DNA from: Nitrospira sp. Ga0074138
GTDB lineage: Bacteria; Nitrospirota; Nitrospiria; Nitrospirales; Nitrospiraceae
Length of the DNA: 64,000 nt
Direction of reading: 5' to 3'
NCBI GenBank assembly: GCA_001464735.1
Contig: LNDU01000029.1
Location: forward strand, 5,573-69,572
Shown here: piece after piece, positions 1-27,362 of the stretch
Layout of the letters: each line of letters starts with the position of its first letter
How positions within the stretch are numbered: the first letter of the stretch is position 1
Translations under genes and position numbers: made by a program
The notes under the pieces: generated by a model
Database searches by the model: none
Told to the model about the DNA's origin: nothing
What the model saw: only the letters and a program-made list of their open reading frames with translations

Positions 1-1400
1 GAGAGCTTCGCCGTCGCCAAATAATGACCGATCGTATAGGGCAGGATAAAATAACCATCGGCAAGTCCTTGCATCAAGGAGCTGGCGCCGAGCCGGTTGG
101 CGCCATGATCCGCAAAATTTGCTTCTCCAATCACGAAAAGTCCCGGGATGGTACTCATAAGATTGTAATCAACCCAAAGCCCCCCCATCGTATAGTGTGG
201 CGCCGGATATATCCGCATGGGGACCTGGTAGGCGTCTTCCCCTGTGATCCGGTTATACATGTCGAAGAGGTTGCCATAGCGCTCCTGGACTACATCCTGC
301 CCCTGCCGTTCAATCACATCGGCAAAATCCAGGTACACGCCCTGACCTCCCGGGCCAACGCCATGGCCTTCGTCGCACACAGTCTTCACGGCACGGGACG
401 CGATGTCTCGTGGCGCAAGATTGCCGAAACGGGGGTACCGGCGTTCCAGAAAATAGTCGCGTTCTTCGGCGGGTATGTCGCCAGGAGGCCGGTGATCCGC
501 AGCCATCTTCGGCACCCACAACCGTCCGTCGTTGCGGAGCGATTCGGACATCAGGGTCAACTTGGCCTGGTGTTCGTCCCCCGGCGGGATCGCCGTGGGA
601 TGAATCTGCATAAAGCACGGATTCGCGAATGCGGCACCCTGTTTCCACGCCCGATACGTGGCCGTCACATTGCTGCCGCTCGCATTGGTCGACAGGTAGT
701 ACACGTTGCTGTAGCCGCCGGTCGCAAGAACCACGGCATGGGCCGTCTGGATACTCACCCGTCCCGTGACGAGATCACGCACCACGATTCCTCGGGCCTG
801 ACCGTCAATCACTATCAGATCGAGCATCTCGGTCCGAGGGTGCATCGTGACCTGTCCACGTTCAATCTGCCAGCAGAGCGCCGAATAGGCGCCCAAGAGC
901 AGTTGCTGTCCGGTCTGTCCGCGACAGTAGAACGTCCGCGAGACTTGGACACCTCCAAACGATCGGTTGGCCAACTGCCCGCCATACTCACGGGCAAAAG
1001 GAATGCCGAGCGCCACACATTGATCGATAATTTGCGCACTGACCTGGGCAAGCCGATAGACATTCGCCTCTCGCGAACGAAAGTCTCCACCCTTGATCGT
1101 GTCGTAAAACAGTCGGGCCACACTGTCCCCGTCATCCTGATAGTTTTTTGCGGCATTGATCCCGCCTTGTGCCGCAATACTGTGCGCACGTCGCGGACTG
1201 TCATGAAAACAAAAGCACTCCACCTGATAGCCGAGCTGTCCCAAGGTCGAAGCCGCACTGGCTCCCGCAAGGCCGGTGCCGACAACGATGACGGTGATGT
1301 TCCGCTTGTTATTCGGACTCACTAATTTTTCGCTGAATCGATGTCGGTCCCATTTGGTTTCCAGCGGGCCGGCAGGAATCTTCGGATCAAGTTTCATCAT
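1..1400 (-). CDS. sdhA: Succinate dehydrogenase/fumarate reductase flavoprotein subunit (runs off the left edge of the window)
   Basis: Manual reverse translation gives [47 protein letters not shown], with a GxGxxG FAD motif. The start overlaps the sdhC stop (ATGA). The 433-aa plus-strand ORF is its antisense shadow. Confidence 0.9.
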
Positions 1401-2077
1401 CCGCGTACGATCCCCAAGAAGATGGCTAGGATGATGGCGACATTGCCAAGAACGACCAACAGCGCGACCGTGGGACCAGCGGCCTTGATGAGTCGGTTGA
1501 ATGCCGCGCGTTCAAGCCCCAATGTCTGTAAACTGCTGGTGACGGCATGGTTCAGATGCAAGCCCAGCCCCAGCTGACCCATCAAGTAAAACGCCACGAT
1601 AAATGGATTCTGAAAAGCGTGGACGATCTTCCCATAAACATCACGATGTCCTTCGGTGTCGAGGCGATCGACAGAAGAGGGATCGATGACGCCGGCCGTC
1701 AGATGTAACAAGTGGAATAGGATAAAGAGTAAGAGTACAAGGCCGGAGACGGCCATGGTGCGGGACGCAAACGGTGCTTGGCGATACTCGCGGACCGCAT
1801 AGGCGACCGGGCGAGCACGACGATTTCGCAAGGTCAACTGGATCGCCAGGACGATGTGGAGTGCCGCAAGGCTCAGCAACCCGATCCGAGCGGTCCAGAG
1901 GAGGATCGGCATGTCGCGGAGCATCGCCGCATAGCCATTGAGCGCATGGGATCCTTCGAATACTTGTAGGTTCCCCAACATGTGAAAAATAACATAGATA
2001 ACGAGCCCCAGCCCGCTTAGAGCCATGACGACTTTACGGCCGACTGAGGACTGGAAATGGTTAGACTGGCGTGCCAT
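1397..2077 (-). CDS. sdhC: Succinate dehydrogenase cytochrome b558 subunit
   Basis: [20 protein letters not shown] and HLLHLT motifs; five hydrophobic helices; coupled to sdhA. Confidence 0.9.
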
Positions 2078-2203
2078 CTGCGATCATTATACACCGCTTG
2101 GATTCACGAAGACTCATGGGAACGTTGGAGAGGTGTCCTGAGGCACGACGATAAAGCGGCGTGGTGGTTCGCGCTCGTTGAGTGGTCGCAGGTACCAAAG
2201 ATG

Positions 2204-3450
2204 TTATCGAGCGCCTGACGGTCCAGACCGTGGCGTCACACGCTTAACTTGGAGCTCCAGTTGCTCGGACGGATGCATCCCTGGGACCAGCACGGCGAGC
2301 GCCATGACACAATTCCGCCCACCTTCCTTTGCAGCATAGAGCGCCTTGTCCGCTTGATCGATCAGCTCCAAAGGCGTCCGTGCTCCGAACGCGATGGCCG
2401 ACACCCCGATGCTCACCGTCAGTGTCAAACCAGACACCATTCGAAGCCGGCTGCCCGCCTCAGCCCCAACACGTATTCGCAAACGTTCCGCCAGATCCGT
2501 CGCTTCGGCCAGCGTCGTGCGAGGGAACATCAGCAGAACTCTTCTCCTCCATAGCGCCCGACCGTGTCCGTCAACCGCAACCCTGCGGAGAGACAATTGG
2601 CGACTGCTTGGATGGCTTGATCGCCGACGGCATGTCCATATCGATCATTCACACGCTTAAAGTTATCAATGTCGACCATCACACAACAGAGCTCGCTTCC
2701 GTGCTCGCGGCTCTCCGCAAACGCTTTCTCAAACAGCGCGTAGAACGCACGGCGGTTCAGACATCCGGTGAGCGGATCGCGTGAGGCCAAACGCTCCAAC
2801 TCCCCATTTTGCCGTAAAATTTCTGTCTGTGCCGACTCAAGATTTACCACGGTTCGCATCAGGGCGCTGTTGATATTCGTGAGTTGCTGGTTCGCACGCT
2901 GGAGCTCCGCTGTGCGTTCCTCGACCAAGCGACTCAACTCATGCAGCTGTCCAACAGCCTTATTCGCCAAGTCCCATTTCCAGCAGAGCGCGGTAGCGAG
3001 CTGCAAGGCTTCAATGCCGTTAAATGGCTTCTGCAGAATCAGTAACTTGTCGGTTCTCCCTATCCGTTCTCTGATTTCTCCCCAAGGCTGATCGGAATAG
3101 GCCGTGCAGACGACCACCTGAAGGCCTGCGTCGACTTTCCAGAGCTGCTCGATGGTTTCGAGCCCATCCCAGCCCGGCGGCATCCTCATATCGACGAAGG
3201 CGACGGCATACGGTCTGCCCGCATTGTTCGCAGCCTGCACCAAGTCCGATGCCACCTGTCCTTGATCCGCACAATCAACCTGGAAGGGCTCATGAGCCTG
3301 AATCAGACTGGCGTCCCCAAATAAGGCCGAACGTGCCCTTTCAAGAGCCTCCGACTCTGTGTCGAATTGAAGAATGCTCCGGAAGTCGTCATGGATCGAT
3401 GGGTTGTCGTCCACAACGAGAATGCGTCGATTGAGACTATCCGTCGACAC
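2204..3450 (-). pseudogene. REC-GGDEF diguanylate cyclase, frameshifted just after GGEEF
   Basis: ORF 2530..3450 has REC, a coiled coil, DPLTG and GRYGGEEFC*. ORF 2204..2596 continues LMFPRTT...TVSIGVS...ADKALYAAKEGGRN. The sequence reads TTC TGC TGA TG where TTC TGC CTG ATG would be in frame. Confidence 0.85.
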
Positions 3451-3691: not shown

Positions 3692-4957
3692 TTAGACCAC
3701 CTTCGCCAACACCGTCTGGGTGGAAGGCTTTTGGAGTTGAATCGTGCACCAAAACGTCGATCCTTGCCCAAGAACACTGTCGACACCCACTATCCCCCCC
3801 ATCATGTGCGCCAGTTGCTTGACAATGGCGAGCCCAAGTCCTGTCCCACCATACTTGCGCGTAGTACTGCCGTCAGCCTGTGTAAACGGCGTAAAGAGCT
3901 TGGCTTGGACGGCGGGCTCGATACCGATGCCTGTGTCCCGCACTTTCAGACAAAACGTTGTCGTATCGACAGTATCCTCAGCGACCGCCACGTGCAGGAC
4001 GATTTCTCCTTGGGTCGTAAATTTGATGGCGTTGCCGATCAAGTTGGTCAAGATCTGCCGAATGCGCACCGGGTCACCGTCGTATTCCGGCAGGAGATTG
4101 TCAGCGAGCACGACCGTCAACCTCAGCCCCTTGCTCTCAATGGGGCCGGACAATAGTTCCAGGACATCCTTGACAAGCTGACGCAGATCGAACGCGATGC
4201 GTTCGAGCTTGAGTTTGCCTGATTCAATCCTCGAGATATCGAGGATATCATTGATGATCTGCAGCAAAGCCATTCCGGATTTGTGGAGCGTCTCGATGTA
4301 CCGGCGTTGCTTGTCGTTCAAAGGCGTCCGCAGCAAGAGTTCGCTCATCCCGAGAATACCGTTCATGGGCGTGCGGATTTCGTGGCTCACGTTGGCAAGG
4401 AATTGCGATTTCGCGACGTTGGCGGCCTCAGCCGCTTCTAACCGTTGGCGCGCCTGACGCGCCAGCCTCCACTTGGTGGTTAGGGAGGCGGCCAATTGCG
4501 AGACCTCCACGGTGGAAAATGGTTTTTGCAGAATCAGGAGACGGTCGTCGCAGCCCAGTCGGCGAATGATGTCCTCCCAGGAATGGTCAGTGTAGGCCGT
4601 GCAGATGACCGTCTGAATCTCGGGATCAACCTCCCACATACGCTCGATGGTCTCCAGCCCATCCCATCCCGGAGGCATCCGCATGTCCACAAACGCCACC
4701 GCATAAGGCCGTCCCTCTCGGCGTGCCATTTGTACGAGGGCCAGCGCGGCTTGCCCCTGATCTGCATAATCCAGTTCAAACCGCACAAGAGCCTTCTGAA
4801 AAGATTCGCCCCCGAATAACGACGCGCGTGCTTCATCCAGCCCCTGTGTCTCCGTTCCCGGTTGAAGGATTTTGCGAAAGTCCTCGTGGATCGAGAGATT
4901 ATCATCAATGACCAAGACTCGAAGATGCTGACTATGCTTGTCGGTATCCGTATTCAT
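3692..4957 (-). CDS. Hybrid REC-histidine kinase (REC-HisKA-HATPase)
   Basis: [14 protein letters not shown] receiver, [16 protein letters not shown]-box, [15 protein letters not shown] and GGTGLGL boxes. Start placed at MNTDTD after a GGGAGAG RBS. Confidence 0.9.
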
Positions 4958-4993: not shown

Positions 4994-6883
4994 TTAGGCG
5001 GCGCGAGAACCAATGGCAGGTAACCACTGGTGGACCGCCTTCTGTATCTCTTTGAGCCCCACCGGCTTTGGCAGGAAACCGTCCATCCCGCCCGCGATGC
5101 AGGCAGTTTCGACAGTGCTCACTGCGTAACCTGACAATGCGAGAATCGTCACAGGCCTACCGTCCCCTCTCGTAAATCCTCGTCGACGAATTTCTGCTGT
5201 CGCAGTCAGTCCATCCATCTCCGGCATTTCGCAGTCCATGAGGACCAGGTCGTATGGGCGCCTCTCAAGCGCCTGAATCGCCTCTCGACCCGTACCCGCC
5301 GTATCGGCTGATTCCCCACAGAGCTCCAGCATGCGAAGAAAGACCTCTTGGTTCGTCGGATTATCTTCAGCCAAGAGGATACGCGCACGTGACCGTGGCT
5401 TGGAGGAATGGACGCCCGGGCTCCTATCTTGGTTCCTAGTGATCAATACGTCAGGCGTCGAGTGGTCATCCGCCTGCTTGCGCTCCAGCCCAGCTCTGTC
5501 GCTCGCGCTCACCTTCTCAAGACAGACCGTAAACCAAAATGTGGAACCGCTTCCTGGGGTACTGGTGAGACCGACGTCTCCACCCATCAAGGAGGCGAGT
5601 CGTTGAACAATCGCGAGTCCTAAACCCGTCCCTCCGTACCGCCTCGTCATCGATCCATCAACCTGAGCGAACGGATCGAAAATTTTCTGCTGCGCCTCCA
5701 GAGGAACACCGATTCCGGTATCGCACACCGATATTTTGAATAAGGTCTTCTCCTCGCGATCCTCGAGACGCTCAACATGAATCAGGATGCCCCCTCGTTC
5801 CGTAAATTTCATGGCATTGTTCACGAGGTTCATCAGAATCTGCCGAAGGCGCACGCCATCCCCCCGCCACACAGCAGGTAACTCGGGGTCGATCTGACAT
5901 TCTAACGTAAGCCCCTTTTGTCGCGAGGGTTCCTGGAATAGACCGGCAACATCCTGCACAGTTGCAACCAGATCAAACCCCGTGATGTGGAGGTCCATCT
6001 TGTTCTCTTCAATCTTGGACAAGTCGAGTATGTCGTTGATGATCTGAAGCAACTGCTCGCCGGAACGATGGATGGTTTGGACGAAATGACGCTGCCGGTC
6101 GTTCAACGAGGTTGAGAGAAGCAGCTCGTTCATGCCGAGCATCGCGTTCATGGGCGTACGGATCTCATGGCTCATACGGGCTAAGAACTGTGACTTGGCC
6201 TGGTTGGCCTTATCCGCCGCCACCTTGGCCTCCTTAAGGGCCTCGACCATTTTCTGTAATTCATCGTGGCGCTGTTGAAGCTCAGCCGTCCGTGCAGCCA
6301 CTTGCTGCTCGAGATGCTGGTTCGTCGCCTGGAGTTCTCGATTGCGGGCATTGACCTGTGCAACGAGACCTTCGATCTGCAGCCGGATGTCCCGTCCCAA
6401 CTCCCACTTCCTGGTCAGCGATGCAGCAATCTGTTGGACTTCAATGGAATCAAACGGTTTCCGAAGGATGAGCAACCGGTCTCTCATCTCTAGCCGTGCG
6501 GCAATCTCCGCCCACGAATGATCTGAATAGGCCGTACAGATAACCACTTGAAGCCGTCCGTCCGCCTCCCAGAGCCGTTCGATCGTTTCCAAGCCGTCCC
6601 ACCCTGGCGGCATCCTCATATCGACAAACGCCACCGCATACGGACGTCCTTCCCGGCGCGCCATCTCTACAAGGGCCAACGCCGCTTGTCCTTGATCCGC
6701 ATAATCCAGCTCGAACCGGTCCAGGGCGTCGACAAGCGGCGTATCTCCGAACAGCGTCGCCCGTGCGCGATGGAGCCCCTCTTCCTCGGGTGACGCTTCA
6801 AGGATTCTGCGAAAATCCTCATGGATGGCCCGATTGTCGTCAACAACCAAGATTCGAAGGTTTTTACTGTTGGCGCCCATCAT
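4994..6883 (-). CDS. Hybrid histidine kinase (REC-HisKA-HATPase-REC)
   Basis: N-terminal [14 protein letters not shown]-box, N/G boxes and C-terminal REC (ILLAEDN...[13 protein letters not shown]). Confidence 0.9.
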
Positions 6884-15501: not shown

Positions 15502-15834
15502 ATGGACTCGTATTACCATTCGCATGATCTTGGCAAGTTTGCTGACATCGGAAAGGGCAACAAAGCACTGTGGGAGAAGTTCAAGAGCTACTACGACGCG
15601 GTGTTTGTGGAGGGCGCGTTGACGGAGCGAGAGAAGGCGCTCATTGCCCTGGCCGTCGCCCATACCGTGCAATGTCCCTACTGCATCGACGCCTACACGC
15701 AGGCGTCGCTGGAAAAGGGATCAAATGTAGAAGAAATGACCGAGGCGGTGCACGTCGCTTGCGCCATCCGCGGCGGCGCATCACTTGTCCATGGCGTCCA
15801 GATGCGGAACGTGGCGGAGAAGCTGTCGATGTAG
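15502..15834 (+). CDS. AhpD/carboxymuconolactone decarboxylase family protein (arsenosugar-associated peroxidase-like)
   Basis: GALTEREKALIALAVAHTVQCPYCIDAY with CxxC; GGAGG RBS. Confidence 0.8.
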   Translation: MDSYYHSHDLGKFADIGKGNKALWEKFKSYYDAVFVEGALTEREKALIALAVAHTVQCPYCIDAYTQASLEKGSNVEEMTEAVHVACAIRGGASLVHGVQMRNVAEKLSM

Positions 15835-15965
15835 GAGGTGAGTTGACAGGTATTTCTTAGGAGGCGCGATGACTCAACTCCATCAAGTTGAGATCAGCCA
15901 ATAAGAGCTGATTGGGATTTTTACAGTTGTCCCTGGTTCAACCGGCAAGGAGGATTCTTAATCCC

Positions 15966-16364
15966 TCATTTCAGGACTTCGTCTGGGAACAGCGCGGTGA
16001 TGAGAGATCGCGCCTCTGGTAACAACGGCTTCACCTCTTCGAGTTCCAAACCGGTGCTACCCAGAGTCGGATACCGTTCAGCCATGTAGAAGGCAGAGGC
16101 TTGTTCGCAGAGGCCACGAAACGGTCGAATCGCGTCATCATGGGCTGCAGCTTCATCAAGTAAGCTCTGAAGCGTGTGCACCTTCTTCAGCTTCCAGCCT
16201 TTCCCCAAGAGATACGCCTTGAGAAATTTCTCCAAGGCCTGTTGAAGAAAGAGCCCCGCCCCTTCGGCATCGCCATCGTCCAACATGACATGAATTCGAT
16301 GCCAGTCCTGTCGTCCGACAACCCGCCAGTCTTCAGGGTACAAAGAATCGCGGCGTGAGGTCAC
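15966..16364 (-). CDS. HEPN domain protein
   Basis: FLQQALEKFLKAYL...KKVHTLQSL...YMAERYP HEPN motif; overlaps the MNT gene by 4 bp. Confidence 0.85.
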   Translation of the reverse strand: MTSRRDSLYPEDWRVVGRQDWHRIHVMLDDGDAEGAGLFLQQALEKFLKAYLLGKGWKLKKVHTLQSLLDEAAAHDDAIRPFRGLCEQASAFYMAERYPTLGSTGLELEEVKPLLPEARSLITALFPDEVLK

Positions 16365-16693
16365 AAGTCCACCCCTGTCTCCACCACCTCCGCAATAAAT
16401 TGATCGCCGCGGGCTAACCGGGCCTGCAATTCCTGTGGGCTCAAGACAATCGGCGCCAGCGGCAACCCATAGCTGATTTCGCGCACAACGCGAAGCACCG
16501 AGGCCGAACGCTCGTAAAAACGCTCGCCGGTGTCGGCGATCACCAGCAGATCGATATCGCTATGCTCAGTGGCTGTGTCGTGTGCCATCGACCCAAAGAG
16601 GATGACACGCACAGCACCATAATTCTGGCGCAATCGATCCGCAATGGTTTTCAACCGATCCCTATCGACGGTCGTAGAAATCGACGGGGCCAT
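16361..16693 (-). CDS. Minimal nucleotidyltransferase (MNT)
   Basis: VILFGSMAHDTATEHSDIDLLVI (GS-x10-DxD); GAAGGAGG RBS. Confidence 0.85.
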   Translation of the reverse strand: MAPSISTTVDRDRLKTIADRLRQNYGAVRVILFGSMAHDTATEHSDIDLLVIADTGERFYERSASVLRVVREISYGLPLAPIVLSPQELQARLARGDQFIAEVVETGVDL

Positions 16694-16880
16694 ACTGCCT
16701 CCTTCATCTATCCAGCTGTCTTTCCTGAGCGGGCGAAACACCGAGGGCCTTAGCCAGGATGCTTCTTCAAGCCGCTAGCTGCACCTCGATCTCAGGGGTG
16801 CCCAGTCTCCCGTAGCAAGTACCTTGAGAGCATATTAGTGCGCAACAGCAAACGCCTGCAACCGGATAGCAATTTTCCAC

Positions 16881-16907
16881 TCGTCAGAGGCTCAGCGCGA
16901 ACGGATG
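16881..16907 (+). repeat. REP-like element copy at the avd breakpoint
   Basis: AGGCTCAGCGCGAACGGATG matches AGGCTCAGCACGAGCGGATG of the copy at 20484-20510. Confidence 0.6.
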
Positions 16908-17053
16908 TTGTTCGGCATGCGCGACTCGATCCGCTCTCCCAGCACAAACCGATGAGATCGTGGAAACTTGCCCAAGTGGTTGATGAGCCAGCGCAGCACA
17001 TCGTAGGCCTTGGTCACGGCCATAGGAAGGGTTCCGGCAGATTCCTCGGTCAT
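16892..17053 (-). pseudogene. avd: Truncated DGR accessory variability determinant (Avd-like four-helix bundle), N-terminal 46 aa only
   Basis: Manual translation (53 aa, below the ORF-track cutoff): MTEESAGTLPMAVTKAYDVLRWLINHLGKFPRSHRFVLGERIESRM|PNNIRSR*. KxYD-WL-KFPR-xRF-LGxRIE is the Avd N-terminal signature. The gene sits directly after an FGE/CLec gene. Confidence 0.8.
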
Positions 17054-17110
17054 GATGACCCCGGATTACAACTCGTTGATCACACAAAGAGAAGAGACGA
17101 TAACGAAGAC

Positions 17111-17138
17111 CCGGAGAAAAGGAAACAGGGTCAAAGCG
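17111..17138 (-). repeat. 28-bp element 6 bp downstream of an FGE/CLec stop codon (copy 1)
   Basis: CCGGAGAAAAGGAAACAGGGTCAAAGCG, 27/28 identical to 25359-25386, with the same distance to the stop. Confidence 0.85.
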
Positions 17139-17144
17139 TATAGA

Positions 17145-20100
17145 CTATTTTATGTCCTGGGCAAGGCGAAAACCGATGGTATTGTCTCGATCGTCAGCCA
17201 GGCCAGGCTTGTCGTAGCGCCGGGACCAGACGTTGAACTCCTTCCTCTCCCTTCTGTCATCCCAGGAACCACCCCGGATCACCCGCAAACCTTTCTTTTT
17301 GTCATACCAGTCCGCACACCATTCCCAGACATTCCCGACCATGTCATAGCACCCGTAGGGACTGACCCCAGTAGCATAATCGGTTACCGGTGTCGTATGG
17401 GAAACGCGCGCATGGGCACTATTGCATTTCCCCTTGTCGAACTCGTCTCCCCAAGGATATTCGCGTCCATCCTCCTGGCCACGAGCAGCCTTTTCCCACT
17501 CCTGCTCGGTCGGCAGGCGTTTCCCAGCCCATTTTGCATATGCCTCTGCTTCAAAGTAGCTGACTCCAACAACGGGATGATCGGCCTTGTTCCATTGAGG
17601 ATCATCCCAGTATTGAGGATCTGTGACGTTATTTGTTGTTTTCCACTTCCACCCATCATCTGACCAGTATTGCTGATCTTGATAACCACCGGCCGAGGTC
17701 ATGGTCGATCGTCTCGCGGGTTTTCCGGTCGCCATACAAGAACGGTCCCTTCGGCACTTTCACCATCTCAAAGGGAGGTTCCTGTCTGGGTGTATTTTGG
17801 CTCCGAAAGCTTGACTGACGCCCAGTTGATTCCCCTCGCGATGATTCCTCTTCTGCCGCCCTCGCGGCTTTCCCCTCTATCACCCGTGCAGGCTTCTCCT
17901 CCGGCACTATTCCATACTTCTCTATGAACCCCGACAAGGGTCGCTCTTCCGCTATTGGAGAAGGCCTTTCTTTCCTATCCTCAACCATAGGCTCGACAGT
18001 CTTAGATACTGCCGTAGGCTGATCGACTGGATTCCACATCCCTTTTTACAGAAATCCTATTAGCCGATCCATGTCTCGATGAAAATCGGGATCAGGGCGC
18101 ATGACGAGGCCATTCCGGTAAGACAACTCTTGCAGACTGGCCAGGAGCCGATCCACCAGCGGGATCGCGGCCCCGCTCACCAGCACCGGAATGATTGGAA
18201 TGTCCCGTTTGAGGGCCGATTCGACCTCAATGCGGACAAAATCCCCTGGGTCCTCGAGTCTCGACTTGCCCTTACTGCCGCGTTTTTTGATCCAATCCCG
18301 CCCGATGACTACCAGGAACACCTAGCACTTACTCACCTGCGTATCGAGATACTTCCGAAAATCAACACCAAACGGAATCGAATCGACATCCTTAAAGACG
18401 GCCCCTGCCCCAAACTCTTGACGGAGTCGGTCGTAGATCCGCCCCGTGACATCGGCACTATCCTCGCGACGATAGGAAATGAAGATCCTGCTCATACTCC
18501 TAGGCAAGTTCGAACGCACGGCGCCACGCATCACGCCAGACGGTTTCGCTTCCAGTCGCTCGGACTCTGATTCCACCTCAGCGGCTCGAGAGAGCGTCGC
18601 ACGGTTTACCGTGATGAGGTATGTCTTATTACTACCATTCGAGGCAATCACGATGATTTCTATTTCGGTACTCGATCCGGCAGGGGCTAGAGTTATGGAA
18701 CGGGCTTGCCCCGCACTAGTTCCCTGTCCATTGATCGTCATACTGGAATTGATATCTTGAAGTGTTGGAGTCACGGTGACGCTTGTAACGTTGCTACCAA
18801 CGTTCACCGTATAGGAAGTCCTGCTGGCACTAAAGGAAGGCGAGAGCCTCCCAGATGAGACGGACAAACTCTGCAAGTTATGGTTCCCGCCAAGTGCTGC
18901 CCGGGACACGTTCACCACGTAGGTCTTTTGACTGCCCTCGGATGCGGTCACCCAGATCGTCACACAGGTGGTTGTCCCAGGCCCGCTCAGTTGAATGGTT
19001 GCTTGGCCAGTGGCGCCGCCCACCCCAGCCGATACATCACCCGATATCACGGCATTCGGATCGGCCTTGGTTGCCGCTACTGTGACGCTGGTGACGGCAC
19101 TGCCGACGTTTGCCATATATTGTGTTGTGCTTGCAGTAAACACCGGGCTGATGGAACCAGGAGGCGTCACCGTCAATGCTGACAGGTTGTTATTCTCGCT
19201 AACGACAGCACGAGAGACGTTTACTGTGTAGGTCTTCTGAGTGCCATTGGGTGCGGTCACCTCAATATTAATTAAGGCATTTGACCCTGCTCCGTTCAAC
19301 GCTATGGTTCGGGGTTGTCCGGAGGTGGAGGCCTGCCCATTCACGGTGATCGTTGCGTTGGGATCCTGCCGCGTAGGCGTGACCGTGGCACTGGTCACGG
19401 TGCTTGCCACATCCACGGTATAGCTCAGTGTGTTCGCACTAAAGGCAGGAGTCAGAGTACCTGACGACACGGTTAACGCTGACAAGTTGTTGTTGCCTGA
19501 CGGGACTGCTCGGTTTACCGTGATGCGGTAGGTTTTCGAACTTCCGTTCGGAGGGGTGACAGTAATCACCGCGAGTGTGGTTGTCCCTGGTCCGTTGAGT
19601 GGAAGAGTCGCTTGGCCGGTTGCTGTTCCTGACCCAGCTGTCGCATTCCCCGACAGCACGGCATTCGAATCAGCCTTGGTTGCCGAGACATTCACGCTGG
19701 TCACCTCACTCGCCACCTTCACTGTGTAGTCCGCGGTGCTCGCAGCAAAGCTTGGAACCAAGGTGCCCGGCGACAGGGTCAACGCCGACAAGTTATTGTT
19801 CCCACTAATAAGGACAGCTTGAACCGCACCCTGCAGCGGTTTGCTCTCAGGTTCGGACGTCGGCTTCGCTGACGATGTTGGAGTGGCCTGGCTCTGCGTC
19901 ACGGGAACGCCGATGACCCCGGCCAGATCGTCAATAAATTGGTCAAAGCCGGAATGCTCCTGATCCGGTTGCCAGTCCATCAAGTGCGCGGCCTGTAGAT
20001 GCTCAAACTCCAGTGGGATCTCAACCACGTCCAGCAGCATCACGGGGAATAAGATGTTTCGCCGCAGGCCACTCCGCGATTCATTCTTCACCCAGGTACT

Positions 20101-20298
20101 TTTGACCGAGGTCTTAGTCCCCACCACAACAACGGATCTCGCGGCTTTCAGAGCTTCATGAATGACGTCATCGAAAGACTTGCCAGCAGGAATCCGCCGA
20201 TCCCACCAGACCGACCACCCCTTCCGTTCCAAGGCTCGCGCCAGGGCTTGGACGCGGCCCTTATCTTCGCTGGAATAACTGATGAAGATGTCACTCAT
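17145..20298 (-). pseudogene. TIR - 4x cadherin-like beta-sandwich - TIR - FGE-sulfatase/C-lectin protein with several lesions
   Basis: MSDIFISYSSED TIR; four NNNLSAL...TYxxxVxRA repeats; second TIR (RIFISYRREDS) with an in-frame TAG at 18322-18324; stop/frameshift near 18046; deletion-frameshift near 17695 (IDHD|SAGGYQD); RLPTEQEWEKAARG, GNVWEW and GFRLAQD at the end. Confidence 0.8.
18595..19800 (-). repeat. Four tandem ~100-aa cadherin-like beta-sandwich repeats
   Basis: Repeat heads NNNLSALTLSPG, NNNLSALTVSSG, NNNLSALTVTPPG and NHNLQSLSVSSG. Boundaries are approximate. Confidence 0.8.
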
Positions 20299-20364
20299 GG
20301 CTGGTTCTAAAACGATACGGCTTCATCTGAACGACCCACAACCGCTTGTCACAGAGGCCCGTTT

Positions 20365-20507
20365 GTGGTGAGCCAGTCGAACCATGAAGGGACTTCCGGA
20401 ACGCTACTCAGGACCAGGAAGGGCCCAAGTGTAACGATCTCACGTAAAGCTGTCTAGCAGCTGTTTTGAGGAGTGAGGCTGTGCTTCGACAGGCTCAGCA
20501 CGAGCGG
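20365..20507. repeat. Inverted pair of TTCGACAGGCTCA-type REP-like elements
   Basis: GTGGTGAGCCAGTCGAACC (20365-20383) and CTTCGACAGGCTCAGCACGAGCGG (20484-20507). Confidence 0.65.
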
Positions 20508-20511
20508 ATGG

Positions 20512-22362
20512 TTACAAATACGGATTCTCTGGAATCGCCAGCGTGAAGTATTTTCCCCGCTCTTCGTACAAGACCCGCTGTGCTGTGAGGTCGTTGAGGA
20601 TGGGCAAGAGGATTTCATCACCGCACTCAGTTCGCCCCGCCGCTGCAGATCGGATCTGCTCCACGCTCTTTGCCGACTCATTGCAAATTTCGATGACCAG
20701 CACCGCTAAGCCTTCATACCGCCGACGAGTCGGAGCCGTTGGATTCCGGCCATCGTAGACGGTCACATAGTTCGGTGCCTTCGAGTAATACAGAAACGGC
20801 CGATCCCCTGACTTATGCATCCGTTGCCAGCCCTCGATTGCAGCAACCAGCTCTTGATACAGGTGAGGATCGACTGGCCAATTGTCGAGTTCATACTCAA
20901 AATCGTAGGCGATCTTCTTCAGATCGACCTGCCGTGCGTCGTAGACATACTCATAGGCCATCCCCGGTCCCGTAATCCGGATGCCGTACTCGTGCGGCCT
21001 AGTGAAGTAGGGGCTGAAGCGCTGCAGCCAGAACTTGCCGGTCGCTTCGGGCGGCTGCAGGTGCAGCAGGGAGGGAATCAGGTCGAGCTGACGCTGATAG
21101 TCCTCATTGGTCTCGCCTGGAAATCCCAGCAAAATATTCCATGATACCATCACGTGATAGTAGAGGCTCCACTTGAGGCAGATGATGTTCTGCATCGGCG
21201 TGACGCCCTTGTCCATGGCACGCAGCTGATTGAGGCTCAAACTTTCCAGGCCCGGCTGCATGCACTTCACCCCGCCGGCGGCCAAGGTCTTGATCTGGCG
21301 TTTCTGCAGATTGCTCTTGGTTTCGATAAAGACATCCAAGTCGCAGTGATCCTCCGCCAACTTGCCGAAGAGATTGTCGATATAGGCCATGTCGATGATG
21401 TTATCGACGAGGCGAAACCGGACAGCATCGTAGCGCTGTGAGAGGTCGGCCATTTCTTGTAACACCTGCCCAGGCGCCTTGGCTCGGAACTTCATGCTCT
21501 GGGCATTGAGTCCACAAAAAGTACAGTGATGTTTCTCGCCCCACCAACAGCCACGAGAACCCTCATACAATAGGATTCGATCGAGACCTTGCGCCGTCTG
21601 CCCGAGTTCAGTAAGTAACGCATAGTAGTCGTCATAATCGGGAGGGCCGGTCTTTGCGAAATCGGAGAAGAGTGATTCATTCCGTGTGAGCTTGATCTTG
21701 TCGCCCTGACGGTACGTCACCCCATTCGGATAGTCCACTGTTTTACTGGCCAGAACCTGGCGAACGAACGGCAAGAAACTTTCTTCTCCCTCACCGACCA
21801 CCACGTGATCGATGAAGGGAAACGCCCGGAAGTACTCCAGCCCCATCTCGCCGTCGAAGTTGGCTCCACCGAAGACAATCGTCACATCTGGGTACAAGTC
21901 CTTGATGAGCTTGGCCATGGTCAGGCTCGCGACGTTCTGATCGAACGTCGAGGTAAACCCGACCAACTTATACTGTCCCCAATTGATGGCGGTGAGGGCC
22001 CAAGTGAGAAATTGCGGCGCGATGCGGGTCGCCATCTCTTCGAAGTAGCCAATCGGTTTGCTGCACTCTTGGGACAGCTGTTCAAAGACCGGCTTGAATA
22101 TGCGTGGGTACTCCGCGCGTTTCGGATTGTCTTGAAACAGGAGGAAGGAGAACAGCCACTCGCCGAAGAGCGCGCGTTTCTCACAAATGCTTTCGTGCAA
22201 TTCGACGCCGATCAGGTGGGCAAACCGGACGTTCATATGATGACAATCAACAGGAATGCCGTTGGATTTCAGGAGCGCAGAGAGCGTGCCGAGCTGAATC
22301 GAGGGATACTTGGCGTAGCTGAACGGCATGTTGACGAGCGCAACTCTCGCTTCATCGCTCAT
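20512..22362 (-). CDS. B12-binding radical SAM protein, RiPP maturation C-methyltransferase type
   Basis: VALVNMPF...PSIQLGTL N-terminus, GFTSTFDQN, GGANFDG, SRGCWWGEKHHCTFCG (CxxxxxxxCxxC variant) and QPGLESL. Confidence 0.85.
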   Translation of the reverse strand: MSDEARVALVNMPFSYAKYPSIQLGTLSALLKSNGIPVDCHHMNVRFAHLIGVELHESICEKRALFGEWLFSFLLFQDNPKRAEYPRIFKPVFEQLSQECSKPIGYFEEMATRIAPQFLTWALTAINWGQYKLVGFTSTFDQNVASLTMAKLIKDLYPDVTIVFGGANFDGEMGLEYFRAFPFIDHVVVGEGEESFLPFVRQVLASKTVDYPNGVTYRQGDKIKLTRNESLFSDFAKTGPPDYDDYYALLTELGQTAQGLDRILLYEGSRGCWWGEKHHCTFCGLNAQSMKFRAKAPGQVLQEMADLSQRYDAVRFRLVDNIIDMAYIDNLFGKLAEDHCDLDVFIETKSNLQKRQIKTLAAGGVKCMQPGLESLSLNQLRAMDKGVTPMQNIICLKWSLYYHVMVSWNILLGFPGETNEDYQRQLDLIPSLLHLQPPEATGKFWLQRFSPYFTRPHEYGIRITGPGMAYEYVYDARQVDLKKIAYDFEYELDNWPVDPHLYQELVAAIEGWQRMHKSGDRPFLYYSKAPNYVTVYDGRNPTAPTRRRYEGLAVLVIEICNESAKSVEQIRSAAAGRTECGDEILLPILNDLTAQRVLYEERGKYFTLAIPENPYL

Positions 22363-22404
22363 CTAACGCCTCTTAAGTTACGTCCATCAAATTTCGTTAC
22401 GCTG

Positions 22405-22985: not shown

Positions 22986-24281
22986 TCAACGTTCATTCGG
23001 AACATCCTGCACGCAGCGAAAACCTCGGCCGGTTGCGCCTTCGTCCGCCAGGGCAAACATGCGCACCTGATAATCGAGGTCGCCGACAGCATCATGAATG
23101 CCGAGAGCCTGAAGACTTCCACGAATCACCTTCCGGGTCTGGTCCTTCGGCGGCGTGGGGCTCCATCGAGCCTCTTGGTACGTGGTGGCCGTCCACTCGT
23201 ACACCTGGTCGTTCAAGATCCGGCCCTGCGCGTCATGCGCCGCTTTTTCCCACTCATCTTCCGTCGGTAGCCGCTTGCGAGCCCATCGGCAGTAGGCGAC
23301 GGCATCATGCCACGTGACGTCCTGTACTGGTCCATTGGGATCGAGCGAAGTAGATTGCTCCATCAGGTCGGGAGGAGGCGTCACGCCACTGGATTCAACA
23401 AATCGGCGGTAGCGCGCGTTCGTGACCAAGGTTTTTTCGACATACAGATCGTCCGCCAGATGCAGGGATCGCGCGGTGCCTTGAACCTCTTCCGCCCGTC
23501 CCCCGATAAAAACCTCCACCATCTTGGTCGGGATGCGTCCGGACCGAATCAGCACCATAGGCATTCCATCCACACCGATTTTCTCCTGCGGCACCATCGA
23601 GTCGCTGGCACGTGGCTCGATATGCCAGCCATTCAACGCCACCGCAAGGATCGATGCCGGCACCGCATAACCCAACCGTCCTCTGGTGTCACTCACGACA
23701 CCGATCACCTGCCCGTTCAGTAACAGTGGTCCACCGGAATGGCCTTCCTCAACCAGAGCCTGAAACGCGAGGGTCGGCCCGTTCATCCCACTAAGACTCC
23801 CCGTGGAGACAGTCCAGGGTGGTAACGTCCGTGGAAAGCCTATGAAGGTGAGCGCCTCTCCACCAACTACCTTTGTTGTCAGATCCAGCGGTAACGCCAC
23901 TACACCGTCTGGAATCGGCCCAGCCACACGCAGGGTGGCGAGCCCCTGTGGATCTCCGCCTTCAATCCCGACCACTTGAGCTACGAACGGCTGCTGGAGG
24001 TTGAGGATAAACGTCACGGTGGGTTTGGGATCTCCTTCCACCACATGCGCCGCCGTGACGATGTAGGCGGCGTCCTTGTCAACACGTACGACAAATCCCG
24101 TCCCAACCTTGGATTGCTGCCCTTCAGCCTGAGCGGTGATCTTCACCACCCCGCGTTTCAGATCGCCACTGCCCTGTGACAAGAGAAGATGTGGAAACAG
24201 GAGGGTGGACAGTAGGTAGAAAGCTACGGAGTGGAAGGCAATTCTTACGACAAGTATGCCGCTGACAGACTTTTTCAACAT
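22986..24281 (-). CDS. Exported trypsin-like serine protease fused to a shortened FGE/C-lectin domain
   Basis: N-terminal hydrophobic segment; GTGF, TAAHVV and GHSGGP trypsin motifs; RLPTEDEWEKAA and GFRCVQD. Confidence 0.8.
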   Translation of the reverse strand: MLKKSVSGILVVRIAFHSVAFYLLSTLLFPHLLLSQGSGDLKRGVVKITAQAEGQQSKVGTGFVVRVDKDAAYIVTAAHVVEGDPKPTVTFILNLQQPFVAQVVGIEGGDPQGLATLRVAGPIPDGVVALPLDLTTKVVGGEALTFIGFPRTLPPWTVSTGSLSGMNGPTLAFQALVEEGHSGGPLLLNGQVIGVVSDTRGRLGYAVPASILAVALNGWHIEPRASDSMVPQEKIGVDGMPMVLIRSGRIPTKMVEVFIGGRAEEVQGTARSLHLADDLYVEKTLVTNARYRRFVESSGVTPPPDLMEQSTSLDPNGPVQDVTWHDAVAYCRWARKRLPTEDEWEKAAHDAQGRILNDQVYEWTATTYQEARWSPTPPKDQTRKVIRGSLQALGIHDAVGDLDYQVRMFALADEGATGRGFRCVQDVPNER

Positions 24282-24287
24282 CCTGTG

Positions 24288-25343
24288 CTATTGCCGTTCC
24301 AGCGCAAAAGACCCGGCATTGCCATTATTGCAGGTCACCGTACCCTGGATAGTTTTTCCACCGTCGCCGACTTCTGAGGTAAAATCGCAAGCCACACCCT
24401 GGAAGGTCTGCGACGCGAGGCGTCCGGCGAACACATTGCCCTGCGTACGGCCTTGCATGACGCCGGCATCGCCATGATTGTCGGCATAGGTGCCGGTGAC
24501 CTGGTCGCCGTTTTGTTGATAGACCGTCTGGATGATGGATGTGCCTCCCAAGAGGGTCATGGAAAGACCCTGGTACGTTCCGGATACCAGACCTCTTGCC
24601 GTCGGCTGGACCACGACCGGTTCCGGTTCTTCTTCACTTGATCGTGGCGGAAGCTGCCTCGCTTCCTCCAAGAGCCGTACACCCCATCCCTCTAACGCAA
24701 AACGCGCCACGACGGCAGGCACCGCGGTGTTAAACTTTGCGCCCACCTGCGTCACAATGCCGACGACGCTGCCTTGGAACAGCACTGGCCCTCCCGAATT
24801 GCCTTCGTCGGCTGTACCGGAAAAGGAGAGCGCGCTCCCGCGCCGACCAGAAAGGGTGCCCGTCGTCACGGTCCACATGGAACCTTCCGCGCGTGGGAAG
24901 CCGATCAAGGTGATGGGTTCACCGCCGCTGACAGATGCCGCCTGGTCGAGGGGCAGGGCCACAAGATCGGAGGGAATCTTGCCTTCGACCAAGAGCGCAG
25001 CCAATCCAGCCGGGTTTCCTCCTTCTAGCCCCAGCACGCGAGCGCGATACGAGCGGTGCGGCGCTACGTAGAAGAACACGTTGGGATGCTGGTCGCCTTC
25101 GATGACATGTGAAGCCGTGACGATATAGACATGGTCTTCATCCAACTTCACCACCACTCCCGAGCCGACGCGATTTTTGCCATCCACCTGCGCGGTAATT
25201 TTCACGACCCCTTTTTTCACGCGGACCATGTCATTGGCCCAGAGCGCAGAGGGAAAGGCCACCGCCAGCAGAAGCAGCATGCACAAGGCCCAACTACAGC
25301 ACGCGTGAAAGGTTTCGAACGTTGACGATGCGCGATTCAGCAT
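24288..25343 (-). CDS. Exported trypsin-like serine protease with an unknown C-terminal beta domain
   Basis: Signal peptide ending ALWA; GSG, TASHVI and GNSGGP motifs; paralogous to the N-terminus of the downstream gene. Confidence 0.8.
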   Translation of the reverse strand: MLNRASSTFETFHACCSWALCMLLLLAVAFPSALWANDMVRVKKGVVKITAQVDGKNRVGSGVVVKLDEDHVYIVTASHVIEGDQHPNVFFYVAPHRSYRARVLGLEGGNPAGLAALLVEGKIPSDLVALPLDQAASVSGGEPITLIGFPRAEGSMWTVTTGTLSGRRGSALSFSGTADEGNSGGPVLFQGSVVGIVTQVGAKFNTAVPAVVARFALEGWGVRLLEEARQLPPRSSEEEPEPVVVQPTARGLVSGTYQGLSMTLLGGTSIIQTVYQQNGDQVTGTYADNHGDAGVMQGRTQGNVFAGRLASQTFQGVACDFTSEVGDGGKTIQGTVTCNNGNAGSFALERQ

Positions 25344-25358
25344 GGTGACTTTGCAGAT

Positions 25359-25386
25359 CCGGAGAAAAGGAAACAGCGTCAAAGCG
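25359..25386 (-). repeat. 28-bp element 6 bp downstream of an FGE/CLec stop codon (copy 2)
   Basis: CCGGAGAAAAGGAAACAGCGTCAAAGCG; see copy 1. Confidence 0.85.
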
Positions 25387-25392
25387 AAAAGG

Positions 25393-25803
25393 TTATTTCG
25401 GAACGTCCTGGGCGCAACGGAACCCGATAGCGGCGCCCCAGATCAACGGTGTGTCCCTGCCACGGTATGCAGACCGCAACTCTCTCGGTCCATTGAACCA
25501 GGACCCACCGCGGACGACACGATATTCCCCAGCCGAGGGTCCTTTCGGATTGCGCACCGAGCTCTTGCCATAATAGTTGCTGTCATACCAGTCCGCCACC
25601 CATTCCCACACATTGCCGGCCATATTGTAAGCACCGTAGGGACTTCTCCCGTTCTCAAGTAATCCAAAGTTGATCAGCACCCCATAGTCCATTGAATCGC
25701 GGCACCCAAAATTCGCCAATGTTTTACTGGGTTCTGCATTGCCCCAGGGATAGAGCCGCTGGTCGATTCCTCGCGCTGCCTTCTCCCACTCGGCCTCTGC
25801 GAA
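25393..25803 (-). pseudogene. C-terminal half of an FGE-sulfatase/C-lectin domain with no N-terminal half
   Basis: Begins abruptly at AEAEWEKAARG just after the TIR-TM gene stop; contains SPYGAYNMAGNVWEWVADWY and RGGSW...GFRCAQDVPK. Confidence 0.75.
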
Positions 25804-25817
25804 CACGGCGCGCACCT

Positions 25818-27362
25818 TCAACGCTTGAACTCCTTCCAAAGCCGATAGGCCCCAAGGCTGGTCGTGAACACCGCGGAGACAATCGCTACAAACACCGCGA
25901 GCCGCGCATTATGCCACAAGGCATCCAACGCGGTCAGGCTGTGGAGAATCGGAATCTCGCCTCTCTTCGTACGGACCTGTTTGACCAGCCCATAGCCGAC
26001 CACATTCATGCCTCCACCGTCAGACCGCAATGTGACGCGCTCAATCTCGAATTTGTCCAGCCGCTCTAGGCCAATGGCCTCACCCTCTTTGAGTGGCACG
26101 ATGCCGAGGTGCGGATAATTCGGGAAGCTGATCGTCCCCTGTCCGGTCAGCGCGCTGACCCGCTCGCCGGATGGATCTTGCTTGGTCAGATCCATCGTGA
26201 CCACGGGAATGCCGCTGAAGAACGACGTTGACTGGCCTGACACAAAGGTGGGCGAGAGGATCAGACCACCCGATAGGGCGGTGATTGCGATCCAGGACGC
26301 CTGCTCCGGTAATGTGATGCGATAAGTCAGCTCGTCTTGGTTCCCGAAGGGCGATGCGATGTCGCGCAGCTCCACCTGATCCGCGATCAACTTGAAGGGC
26401 TTATGAATCGACAGTGTGAGCGTGTCCTGACCCGTGACCTGAAGCGTAACTCCCTCTTTCTTTCCGCCATATATCTCTCGCGCTGCCAGCGTCACGTGTG
26501 TGCCTGGCGCCACCGCCATTGGGTCGAGATGGATGGTCTCCGATTCAGCAGCATTCAGTCCCTCGACTGTCACTCTCGGATGCCGGGTTTGATCCTTAGC
26601 CCCCAATGTGACCTTGGCGCCATCGACCTTCAAACGCTTCCAAGCTGAGGGTGGAAAGTCATCCGTCTTGACCCGATACTGCAATGGATTAGCGACCTCA
26701 ATTGTGACCGGTTCAAAGGCAAGGGTGGAGAACTTCTCGATGGCAACCGACTGCACATCGAACCCACTCAACATCGTCTTGCCTTGTTCACTCGCCGCGA
26801 CTTCGAATTCCATACGCTCTGTGGTCAGCTCCACCTGGACCCTTGCCGGAATCGACCATAGCATGAGCCCAATTGCGACGACCGCCGCCAGAATGGCTGG
26901 GGTGCTGACAAGCCAGATCGGAGGAACTCTTTTCCACCAAGGCTTCGGCCCGAACTCAATTCGCTTCGGCGGACTCTTGACGAGTCGTTCAATATCTTTG
27001 AGCAGTTGGACAAACCCTGCATGCTCGACGCCTGCGTCCCAATCCACCAACGATTGAAAGGTCCGCTGGCTGAAGCCCAACGGGATCTCGCTCTCGTTGA
27101 TCTTAATGGGGAGATACTTGTCTTGCTTCTTGGCTTCAGACGCTTCCGCTTGGACCCACTCAGACTCGACGGATTGTTCAGACCACACGACAATCGCACA
27201 TTTGGCGGTGCCAAGTTCTTGTCGGATCACCTGGTTGAACGATCCACCGGTCGGAATGTTGCGATCCCACCAGACAGACCAGCCGTGCGACTCTAACGTC
27301 TTCGCGAATCGTTCGACCCAGGGGCGATCTTTGCTGGAATAGCTGATGAAGATGTCGCTCAT
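25818..27362 (-). CDS. TIR-domain membrane protein (TIR - TM - large extracytoplasmic domain - TM)
   Basis: MSDIFISYSSKD...WWD TIR_2 domain; hydrophobic helices near aa 145-172 and aa 490-507. Confidence 0.75.
   Translation of the reverse strand: MSDIFISYSSKDRPWVERFAKTLESHGWSVWWDRNIPTGGSFNQVIRQELGTAKCAIVVWSEQSVESEWVQAEASEAKKQDKYLPIKINESEIPLGFSQRTFQSLVDWDAGVEHAGFVQLLKDIERLVKSPPKRIEFGPKPWWKRVPPIWLVSTPAILAAVVAIGLMLWSIPARVQVELTTERMEFEVAASEQGKTMLSGFDVQSVAIEKFSTLAFEPVTIEVANPLQYRVKTDDFPPSAWKRLKVDGAKVTLGAKDQTRHPRVTVEGLNAAESETIHLDPMAVAPGTHVTLAAREIYGGKKEGVTLQVTGQDTLTLSIHKPFKLIADQVELRDIASPFGNQDELTYRITLPEQASWIAITALSGGLILSPTFVSGQSTSFFSGIPVVTMDLTKQDPSGERVSALTGQGTISFPNYPHLGIVPLKEGEAIGLERLDKFEIERVTLRSDGGGMNVVGYGLVKQVRTKRGEIPILHSLTALDALWHNARLAVFVAIVSAVFTTSLGAYRLWKEFKR

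Follow-up and report, generated by a model that had tools for sequence, protein, structure and literature searches.

What does the beginning of an avd gene signify when the rest of the system to which it belongs is missing? This question is raised by a 64,000-nt stretch of the Nitrospira sp. Ga0074138 genome (contig LNDU01000029.1, positions 5,573 to 69,572; hereafter the window), in which a gene for a C-lectin-fold protein of the FGE type is followed by a short remnant of avd. This gene belongs to diversity-generating retroelements (DGRs), hypermutation systems in which a target gene with a variable region (VR) is accompanied by avd, a reverse transcriptase (RT) and a template repeat (TR), the last three of which we call the engine. 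A preliminary description, made from the letters of the window alone, had read the locus as a cassette whose engine was deleted on the spot, freezing the last variant of the target. We consider it probable, instead, that the locus is a decayed and orphaned satellite target (a target rewritten in trans by an engine elsewhere) that was inserted together with its avd remnant, and that the engine was lost at another place.

The avd remnant and the block that carries it

The features on which the argument rests are the following.

16892-17053, minus strand: avd remnant (the stub), a 53-codon open reading frame (ORF), identified by its NF033474 match, its identity to the Avd of congener G035 and blastn against congener G074
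16907-20491, minus strand: block of 3.6 kb, read as inserted from synteny with G074, with TIR, four cadherin-like domains, TIR, linker, FGE/C-lectin domain (VR), spacer and avd 5' remnant
16889-16906: copy A of an 18-mer resembling repetitive extragenic palindromic (REP) elements, GGCTCAGCGCGAACGGAT, which carries the stop codon of the stub and is identical to copy B at 16 of 18 positions
20492-20509: REP-like 18-mer copy B, GGCTCAGCACGAGCGGAT, just past the stop of a radical-SAM gene, the other boundary of the block and identical to the single copy in G074
17054-17144, minus strand: spacer of 91 nt between target stop and avd start, holding the post-VR motif CGCTTTGACCCTGTTTCCTTTTCTCCGG (17111-17138) and homologous to the VR-avd spacer of G074 and G106
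17145-17735, minus strand: FGE/C-lectin domain ORF of 196 aa, with the former VR (VR1) at about 17145-17290 (PF03781, E 5e-46, HMM positions 54-254)
17656-18039, minus strand: N-terminal portion of this FGE gene, read in a different frame and placed by alignment with 17 homologues
18046-20298, minus strand: TIR, four cadherin-like domains and TIR of the former target protein (Pfam TIR_2, Cadherin-like)
15966-16364 and 16361-16741, minus strand: HEPN and MNT nucleotidyltransferase genes of a toxin-antitoxin (TA) pair (Pfam HEPN, NTP_transf_2; NCBIfam MntA)

The translation of the stub, MTEESAGTLPMAVTKAYDVLRWLINHLGKFPRSHRFVLGERIESRMPNNIRSR, which includes AVTKAYDVLRWLINHLGKFPRSHRFVLGERIE, matches the NCBIfam model of DGR Avd proteins (NF033474) with an E value of 1.2e-7 and the Pfam model bAvd (PF22296) with one of 0.004. 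Both scores lie below the curated cut-offs (32 bits against 80 for NF033474, 18 bits against 40 for Pfam), and the match spans model positions 4-38 of 104, whereas the full four-helix bundle of Avd takes about 104-107 positions; judged by these models, the stub is a fragment of an Avd family member and not a member itself. No other four-helix-bundle family outscored the Avd models in the NCBIfam and Pfam searches, and only Avd models match, which points to descent from a DGR avd rather than from the generic 23S rRNA IVP family (TIGR02436). Over 52 residues, the stub is 79% identical (E 7e-27) to the N-terminus of the full-length Avd of G035, next to which a DGR-type RT is encoded, and its identity to Avds adjoining DGR RTs is 79-86%. 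At the DNA level, the 5' end of avd, the spacer and the end of the VR of G074 are homologous to window positions 16915-17163 without a break (79.8% identity, blastn), and stub and spacer fall into one of the two avd/TR lineages of the genus, that of G035, G074 and G106. The homology to avd covers the first 139-144 nt or so of the stub (17053 down to about 16912) and ends at about 16910-16915; the final codons and the stop derive from the junction and the REP-like repeat, copy A of which starts within 4-8 nt of that end. These comparisons confirm the ORF as a real fragment, corresponding to the first 46 or so codons of a DGR avd gene. The preliminary description was therefore right about a hidden ORF of 53 amino acids with the N-terminal signature of Avd, about its position some 90 bp past the stop of an FGE gene of the DGR-target type (the ATG lies 91 nt past it), and about its breaking off at a REP-like element, which recurs at the far end of the block.

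The block that ends in the stub is an insertion, because G074 joins HEPN-MNT to the radical-SAM gene with a single copy of the 18-mer. Positions 156-1317 of the G074 locus (L047) correspond to window positions 15748-16910 (the end of an AhpD-like gene, HEPN, MNT and the sequence upstream of MNT) at 93.6% identity, and positions 1332-3197 to window positions 20507-22372 (radical SAM) at 87%; the two segments are adjacent in G074 and 3.6 kb apart in the window. As these flanks are contiguous there, the stub is the tip of an inserted target module. The empty site holds one 18-mer where two direct repeats flank the block in the window, within a shared neighbourhood of AhpD-like, HEPN-MNT, radical-SAM and trypsin-FGE genes. 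In seven further congeners, the AhpD-like gene directly adjoins the radical-SAM gene, with neither the TA pair nor the block. The sister genome G003 has the whole arrangement of the window, including the stub and MNT-HEPN, and G001 has the stub beside the same housekeeping genes with HigBA instead of MNT-HEPN. Because G074 carries the HEPN-MNT pair in the same place without the block, the pair was resident before the block and is no replacement of an engine; by this comparison, at least the MNT-HEPN pair is older than the stub. The deletion of an engine at the stub, as originally supposed, gives way here to the insertion of a target module, as shown by the empty site and the 18-nt direct repeats. 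These comparisons show that a copy of a 3.6-kb DGR target module (TIR-cadherin-TIR-FGE/C-lectin with VR, the 91-nt spacer and 139-144 nt of avd) entered a REP-like site between the radical-SAM gene and the resident HEPN-MNT pair in the common ancestor of the window genome and G003.

TA insertion as the cause of the avd truncation was considered and rejected, as the same TA pair stands in G074 without a stub. In different genomes, avd remnants of one lineage have a TA pair directly behind them, and three such pairs (MNT-HEPN, HigBA and VapBC) occur, at window positions 15966-16741, L029 positions 6082-6691 and L030 positions 6108-6778. The 18-mer belongs to a REP-like repeat family common in the genus; its core, CCGTTCGCCCTGAG, occurs 10 times in the genome at no more than one mismatch, about 1.3 occurrences being expected by chance by our own estimate. 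Members of this family also lie behind several satellite targets in G035, G026, G004 and G027. Further REP-like repeats lie at 20340-20480, and the pattern CCGCTCGTGCTGAGCC TGTCGAAGCAC...; ...TTCATGGTTCGAC..GCTCACCACAAACGG is seen at the bounds of the block.

The gene beside the stub encodes a C-lectin/FGE fold with a C-terminal VR, as a DGR target should, and in its Nitrospira homologues, at 66% identity, hypervariability sets in precisely in the stretch flanked by RGGSW and IGFRLAQD. Close homologues run unbroken from TIR through the linker into MVKVPKGPFLYG...IDHDYWIDxYPVTNEKYRAFI.AGGY..., and P0001, P0007 and P0048 are continuous from TIR to FGE. In the window, there is an in-frame TAG inside the second TIR domain (18322-18324) and an in-frame TAA in the linker (18046-18048), where the homologues continue into the FGE domain; in addition, about 17 codons (YWIDQYPVTNEKYRAFI) were lost after ETIDHD with a shift of frame, the deletion junction lying near 17697/17698. 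Because of these two in-frame stops and the frameshifting deletion, the gene is a pseudogene. The multidomain architecture with TIR suggests that its product was a conflict-system or sensor protein.

VR1 carries no adenine signature against any TR: the best foreign TR differs from it at 12 of 31 adenine and 21 of 84 other positions (p 0.17), with 15 gap positions besides, and VR1 has two in-frame insertions relative to its homologues and to any TR. The C-terminus of the protein and the 3' DNA end of VR1 resemble the other avd/TR lineage, while spacer and stub are of the G035/G074 type. DNA similarity to G003 extends from the last 30 or so nucleotides of the FGE gene across the stub as well as the TA pair, and begins again in the first TIR domain. 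Because the FGE body between these similar flanks is unrelated to that of G003, and the C-terminus and 3' end are of the other TR lineage, the FGE body was exchanged after the insertion, and the VR now beside the stub is therefore not the one that arrived with it. Mismatches spread over adenines and other bases, three disabling lesions and ends of mixed lineage give no support to a frozen last variant.

The missing engine and a second target remnant

The genome assembly comprises 4.1 Mb in 66 contigs, is 94.7% complete and has the window on contig C29. No DGR-type RT was found in it, and tblastn with three congener DGR RTs returned nothing beyond a maturase; the single RVT_1 match is this group II intron maturase of 512 aa, which lies outside the window (G000, contig C16:4771-5517). 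A full avd is likewise missing from the assembly, the stub being the sole Avd match, and so is a TR, BLAST with ten congener TRs having led only to the adenine-poor VR of a second FGE gene (FGE2, below). The genome contains no TR/VR pair that differs only at TR adenines, and no remote engine whose TR matches the VR is present in the assembly. The sister assemblies G001 and G003 are also without a DGR RT or a full Avd. The absence of RT and TR, noted earlier for the window, holds for the whole assembly; the search that had been suggested for a TR differing from 17145-17290 only at adenines found none, VR1 having no adenine-specific relation to any TR. Because no RT, TR or full Avd is left, it is probable that nothing is diversified in this genome at present.

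FGE2 and its surroundings indicate where an engine may have been.

25393-25839, minus strand: FGE2, a second DGR target remnant recognized by its adenine signature, consisting of the C-terminal half of an FGE domain with the VR at 25404-25514
25355-25392, minus strand: post-VR spacer left after FGE2, about 40 nt with the motif, recognized by homology and cut about 55-60 nt short of the avd start position
24288-25382, minus strand: trypsin-like gene between FGE2 and a trypsin-FGE gene (22986-24281), standing on the synteny map where G074 has avd-RT-TR

The FGE2 VR differs from the G074 TR at 19 of 33 adenine sites and 11 of 78 other sites (Fisher p 9e-6), the 11 non-adenine changes also setting it apart from this foreign TR, and the VRs of G003 and G001 likewise differ from it preferentially at adenines. 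In G074, TR (5206-5316), RT (5424-6458) and avd (6462-6812) of L047 sit between the homologue of the trypsin-FGE gene of the window and a trypsin-FGE master target; this interval is occupied by the trypsin-like gene both in the window and in G003. The syntenic place of the engine is thus beside FGE2, 6-8 kb from the stub. From these alignments, the FGE2 site is likely to be the place at which an engine was lost in situ, and loss of avd-RT-TR here appears a simpler reading than gain in G074.

The comparison of syntenic loci that had been proposed did bring to light an avd-RT-TR set in the G074 neighbourhood, at that distance and not behind the stub. The idea of a relic of a hypermutation cassette accordingly survives in part: the locus is DGR debris in a genome from which the engine is missing, but that engine did not stand behind the stub, and an event of the supposed kind is likely at FGE2. 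We propose that the module at the stub was a satellite target, as modules of this type are in two congeners, and that the engine of the lineage most likely stood beside the trypsin-FGE target, as in G074. On the comparison of three genomes, that engine would have been lost at the FGE2 site, with the trypsin-like gene in its place. The target beside the stub has since undergone the exchange of its FGE body, the two stops, the frameshifting deletion and the indels in the former VR, and FGE2 is reduced to half a domain.

Avd remnants and satellite targets in the genus

In a survey of 134 genomes of the genus, with the RT search covering 19 of them, full-length Avd loci numbered 12, in 10 genomes. 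Where flanks were available, intact cassettes have the order FGE target (VR), spacer of about 90-120 nt, avd, RT and TR, and their own VRs differ from the TR only at TR adenines (23/0, 23/0, 21/0 and 18/0 adenine/other mismatches). The genus holds two avd/TR lineages, both of which occur in G106, with three complete cassettes (contigs C47, C100 and C135). About a dozen further loci have an avd remnant just past an FGE gene, and four stubs with common downstream DNA count as one event. Such remnants can belong to targets served from a distance: the VR of a stub locus in G083 shows 15 adenine and no other mismatches to a TR on a different contig, and a G035 satellite with a spacer and no avd shows 16 adenine mismatches and 1 other to a TR elsewhere in its genome. 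Among stub genomes, G083, G002, G036 and G077 have a DGR-type RT elsewhere, and G070, G073 and the window genome have none. On these comparisons, an avd remnant does not by itself mean a deleted engine.

Two mechanisms were tried and rejected. A deletion hot spot within avd was suggested by the HMM-detectable stubs, which end at profile positions 34-55; the exact ends of avd homology, however, are scattered from +66 to +193 nt from the avd start, with other satellites ending at about -60, about -10 and +48, so that the apparent cluster is partly an ascertainment effect of the HMM. Recombination between VR and TR would remove avd wholly, and the sequence after TRs is not avd-like apart from one fragment in G083. 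Short extra avd 5' fragments were seen at L027 (G002:C140) 4103-4183, after a second target gene downstream of the TR, and at L040 (G083:C13) 5429-5497, about 230 nt past the TR by an intact cassette. The TR of G077 is not an adenine-only match to the stub-linked VRs of the same genome, and L067 (G036:C6:820000-832000), a partly masked locus, has a DGR-type RT match with 53% identity within an open frame of 810 codons.

The post-VR motif in the spacer is found again behind FGE2 in the window (25358-25385) and behind many other FGE genes of the genus. It is pyrimidine-rich, CGCTTTGAC(C/G)CTGTTTCCTTTTCTCCGG, and in many VR-bearing FGE genes it stands about 6-10 nt past the stop; the sequence read after the TR of G035 is without it. 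This motif of about 28 nt is a candidate for a recipient-marking or target-recognition element of Nitrospira DGRs.

The stubs show a bias towards third codon positions in six of six pairs tested, with dN/dS values of 0.06-0.2 that come from 36-42 codons, are noisy and are reported as unexplained, with no conclusion drawn. Counted per lineage, non-synonymous and synonymous changes in the stubs stand at about 1:1, as against about 1:3-4 in full-length avd and about 3:1 under neutrality. For the window genome and G003, the bias calls for conversion by a live avd since the two diverged, or else for selection on the peptide. Such conversion, while the engine still existed, would explain the pattern with no function involved, and selection on the stub peptide is the less likely alternative, because the most degraded stub is that of the G083 satellite, which is in perfect register, and the avd-less satellites of G035 are in register too. 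A more general idea, which we put forward tentatively and think rather unlikely, is that target modules with a short avd remnant are a regular product of target recruitment by Nitrospira DGRs, the VR-bearing gene end and spacer being copied a variable distance into avd and landing at REP-like sites, as the 18-nt direct repeats at the block ends suggest. If so, the codon-periodic remnant would be kept alike by conversion from the master avd, or would be translated as a small peptide that derives from Avd and has its own role.

Competing explanations and known systems

Several observations weigh against an orphaned satellite whose engine is gone. The stubs of the window and G003 differ by 4, 4 and 16 changes at the three codon positions (p 0.0025; dN/dS about 0.19), a bias that a long-dead fragment should not show; whether the FGE2 site saw a loss here or a gain in G074 is read without an outgroup; and in an assembly of this completeness and contig number an engine outside the bins is conceivable, the more so as the intact DGRs of relatives often lie on short contigs or contig ends. 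As a rival explanation, a complete target-avd-TR-RT cassette could have stood at the stub and been removed from inside avd through RT and TR, with the TA pair in its place. This would account for the order of target, spacer and avd, which is that of intact cassettes, and for the TA pairs that follow the stub in the window genome and G003, in G001 and in G036 (VapBC), and G106 shows that whole cassettes do multiply. We regard it as very unlikely all the same: G074 has its HEPN-MNT joined to the radical-SAM gene with neither stub nor target, direct repeats bound the block and one copy marks the empty site, 0 syntenic relatives have an RT or TR after the stub, and random deletions of whole cassettes should leave relics of the 3' half of avd and partial DGR-type RTs, neither of which was found (RTs in the 19 genomes).

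It is scarcely probable, too, that the window holds a live remote target whose engine lies in the 5% or so of the genome that is unassembled or unbinned, and that this engine continues to rewrite one VR or both. In G083 and G035 there are indeed remote targets, with avd remnants or spacer, in register with a distant TR, short contigs are where the DGR master loci of relatives tend to be, and the ratio of adenine to other changes in the FGE2 VR (19/11) is within the range of live VRs compared with foreign TRs; against this, both targets are broken (by three lesions and by reduction to half a domain), VR1 has indels and no adenine signature, and a DGR RT or full Avd is lacking as well from the two sister assemblies with this locus. 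That the remnant was retained for a function, as a peptide of about 45 residues (helix 1, the KFPRSHRF loop and the start of helix 2) or as a cis element for satellites, is an explanation that we think quite unlikely, although it would fit the codon bias in all six pairs, including the window and G003 orthologues, and the start codon and frame to about codon 43 that most stubs retain. The stub of the best-registered satellite (G083, 15/0) is the most degraded and another has an early stop, register with the TR is kept (16/1) in G035 by satellites that have no avd sequence, the G003 stub has radical changes at residues invariant in aligned full group-1 Avds (L23P, P31T and R35W), and the remnants break off at a wide variety of positions; the codon pattern is accounted for by gene conversion with a live avd as donor, no function being needed.

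The inserted and orphaned satellite target thus remains the reading that we prefer, and it makes the locus a clean natural example of a hypermutation system dying, with a relative that has the empty site and one that has an intact engine both available for comparison. Where a C-lectin gene is trailed by a piece of avd, this points to a satellite target that was copied and need not mean that an engine was deleted, which should be useful in annotating incomplete DGR loci in metagenome-assembled genomes, and TIR-containing sensor-like proteins are shown to be DGR targets in Nitrospira. No new kind of system is revealed. Remote or trans-served targets are already in the literature: Wu et al. (2018, PMC5758913) describe non-adjacent DGR targets in Treponema denticola among others, and Dore et al. 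(2024, PMC10907252) describe incomplete loci that are diversified in trans in Thiohalocapsa PB-PSB1. The window resembles these cases in having a VR-bearing C-lectin gene away from an RT; it differs in that their targets are served by an RT and TR of the same genome, whereas no engine was found here and VR1 is unrelated to any TR. Term searches of the two papers gave no avd fragment trailing a target (no 'truncated' in PMC5758913, no 'avd' in PMC10907252), and a literature search for truncated avd was likewise empty.

Compared with the intact cassettes of its congeners (G074, G106 and G035), the window has homologues of the avd 5' end, of the 91-nt spacer with its motif and of the IGFR..AQD end of the VR; in contrast to them, its avd stops after about 46 codons, its target is a pseudogene and the whole assembly is without RT and TR. 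The reference system is the DGR of Bordetella phage BPP-1, with the order mtd-avd-TR-brt, in which a target with a C-terminal VR is followed by avd. As in BPP-1, the target in the window has its VR at the C-terminus and precedes avd, of which the N-terminal motif is recognizable; unlike in BPP-1, the TR follows the RT in Nitrospira cassettes, and the window retains a third of avd and none of the rest.

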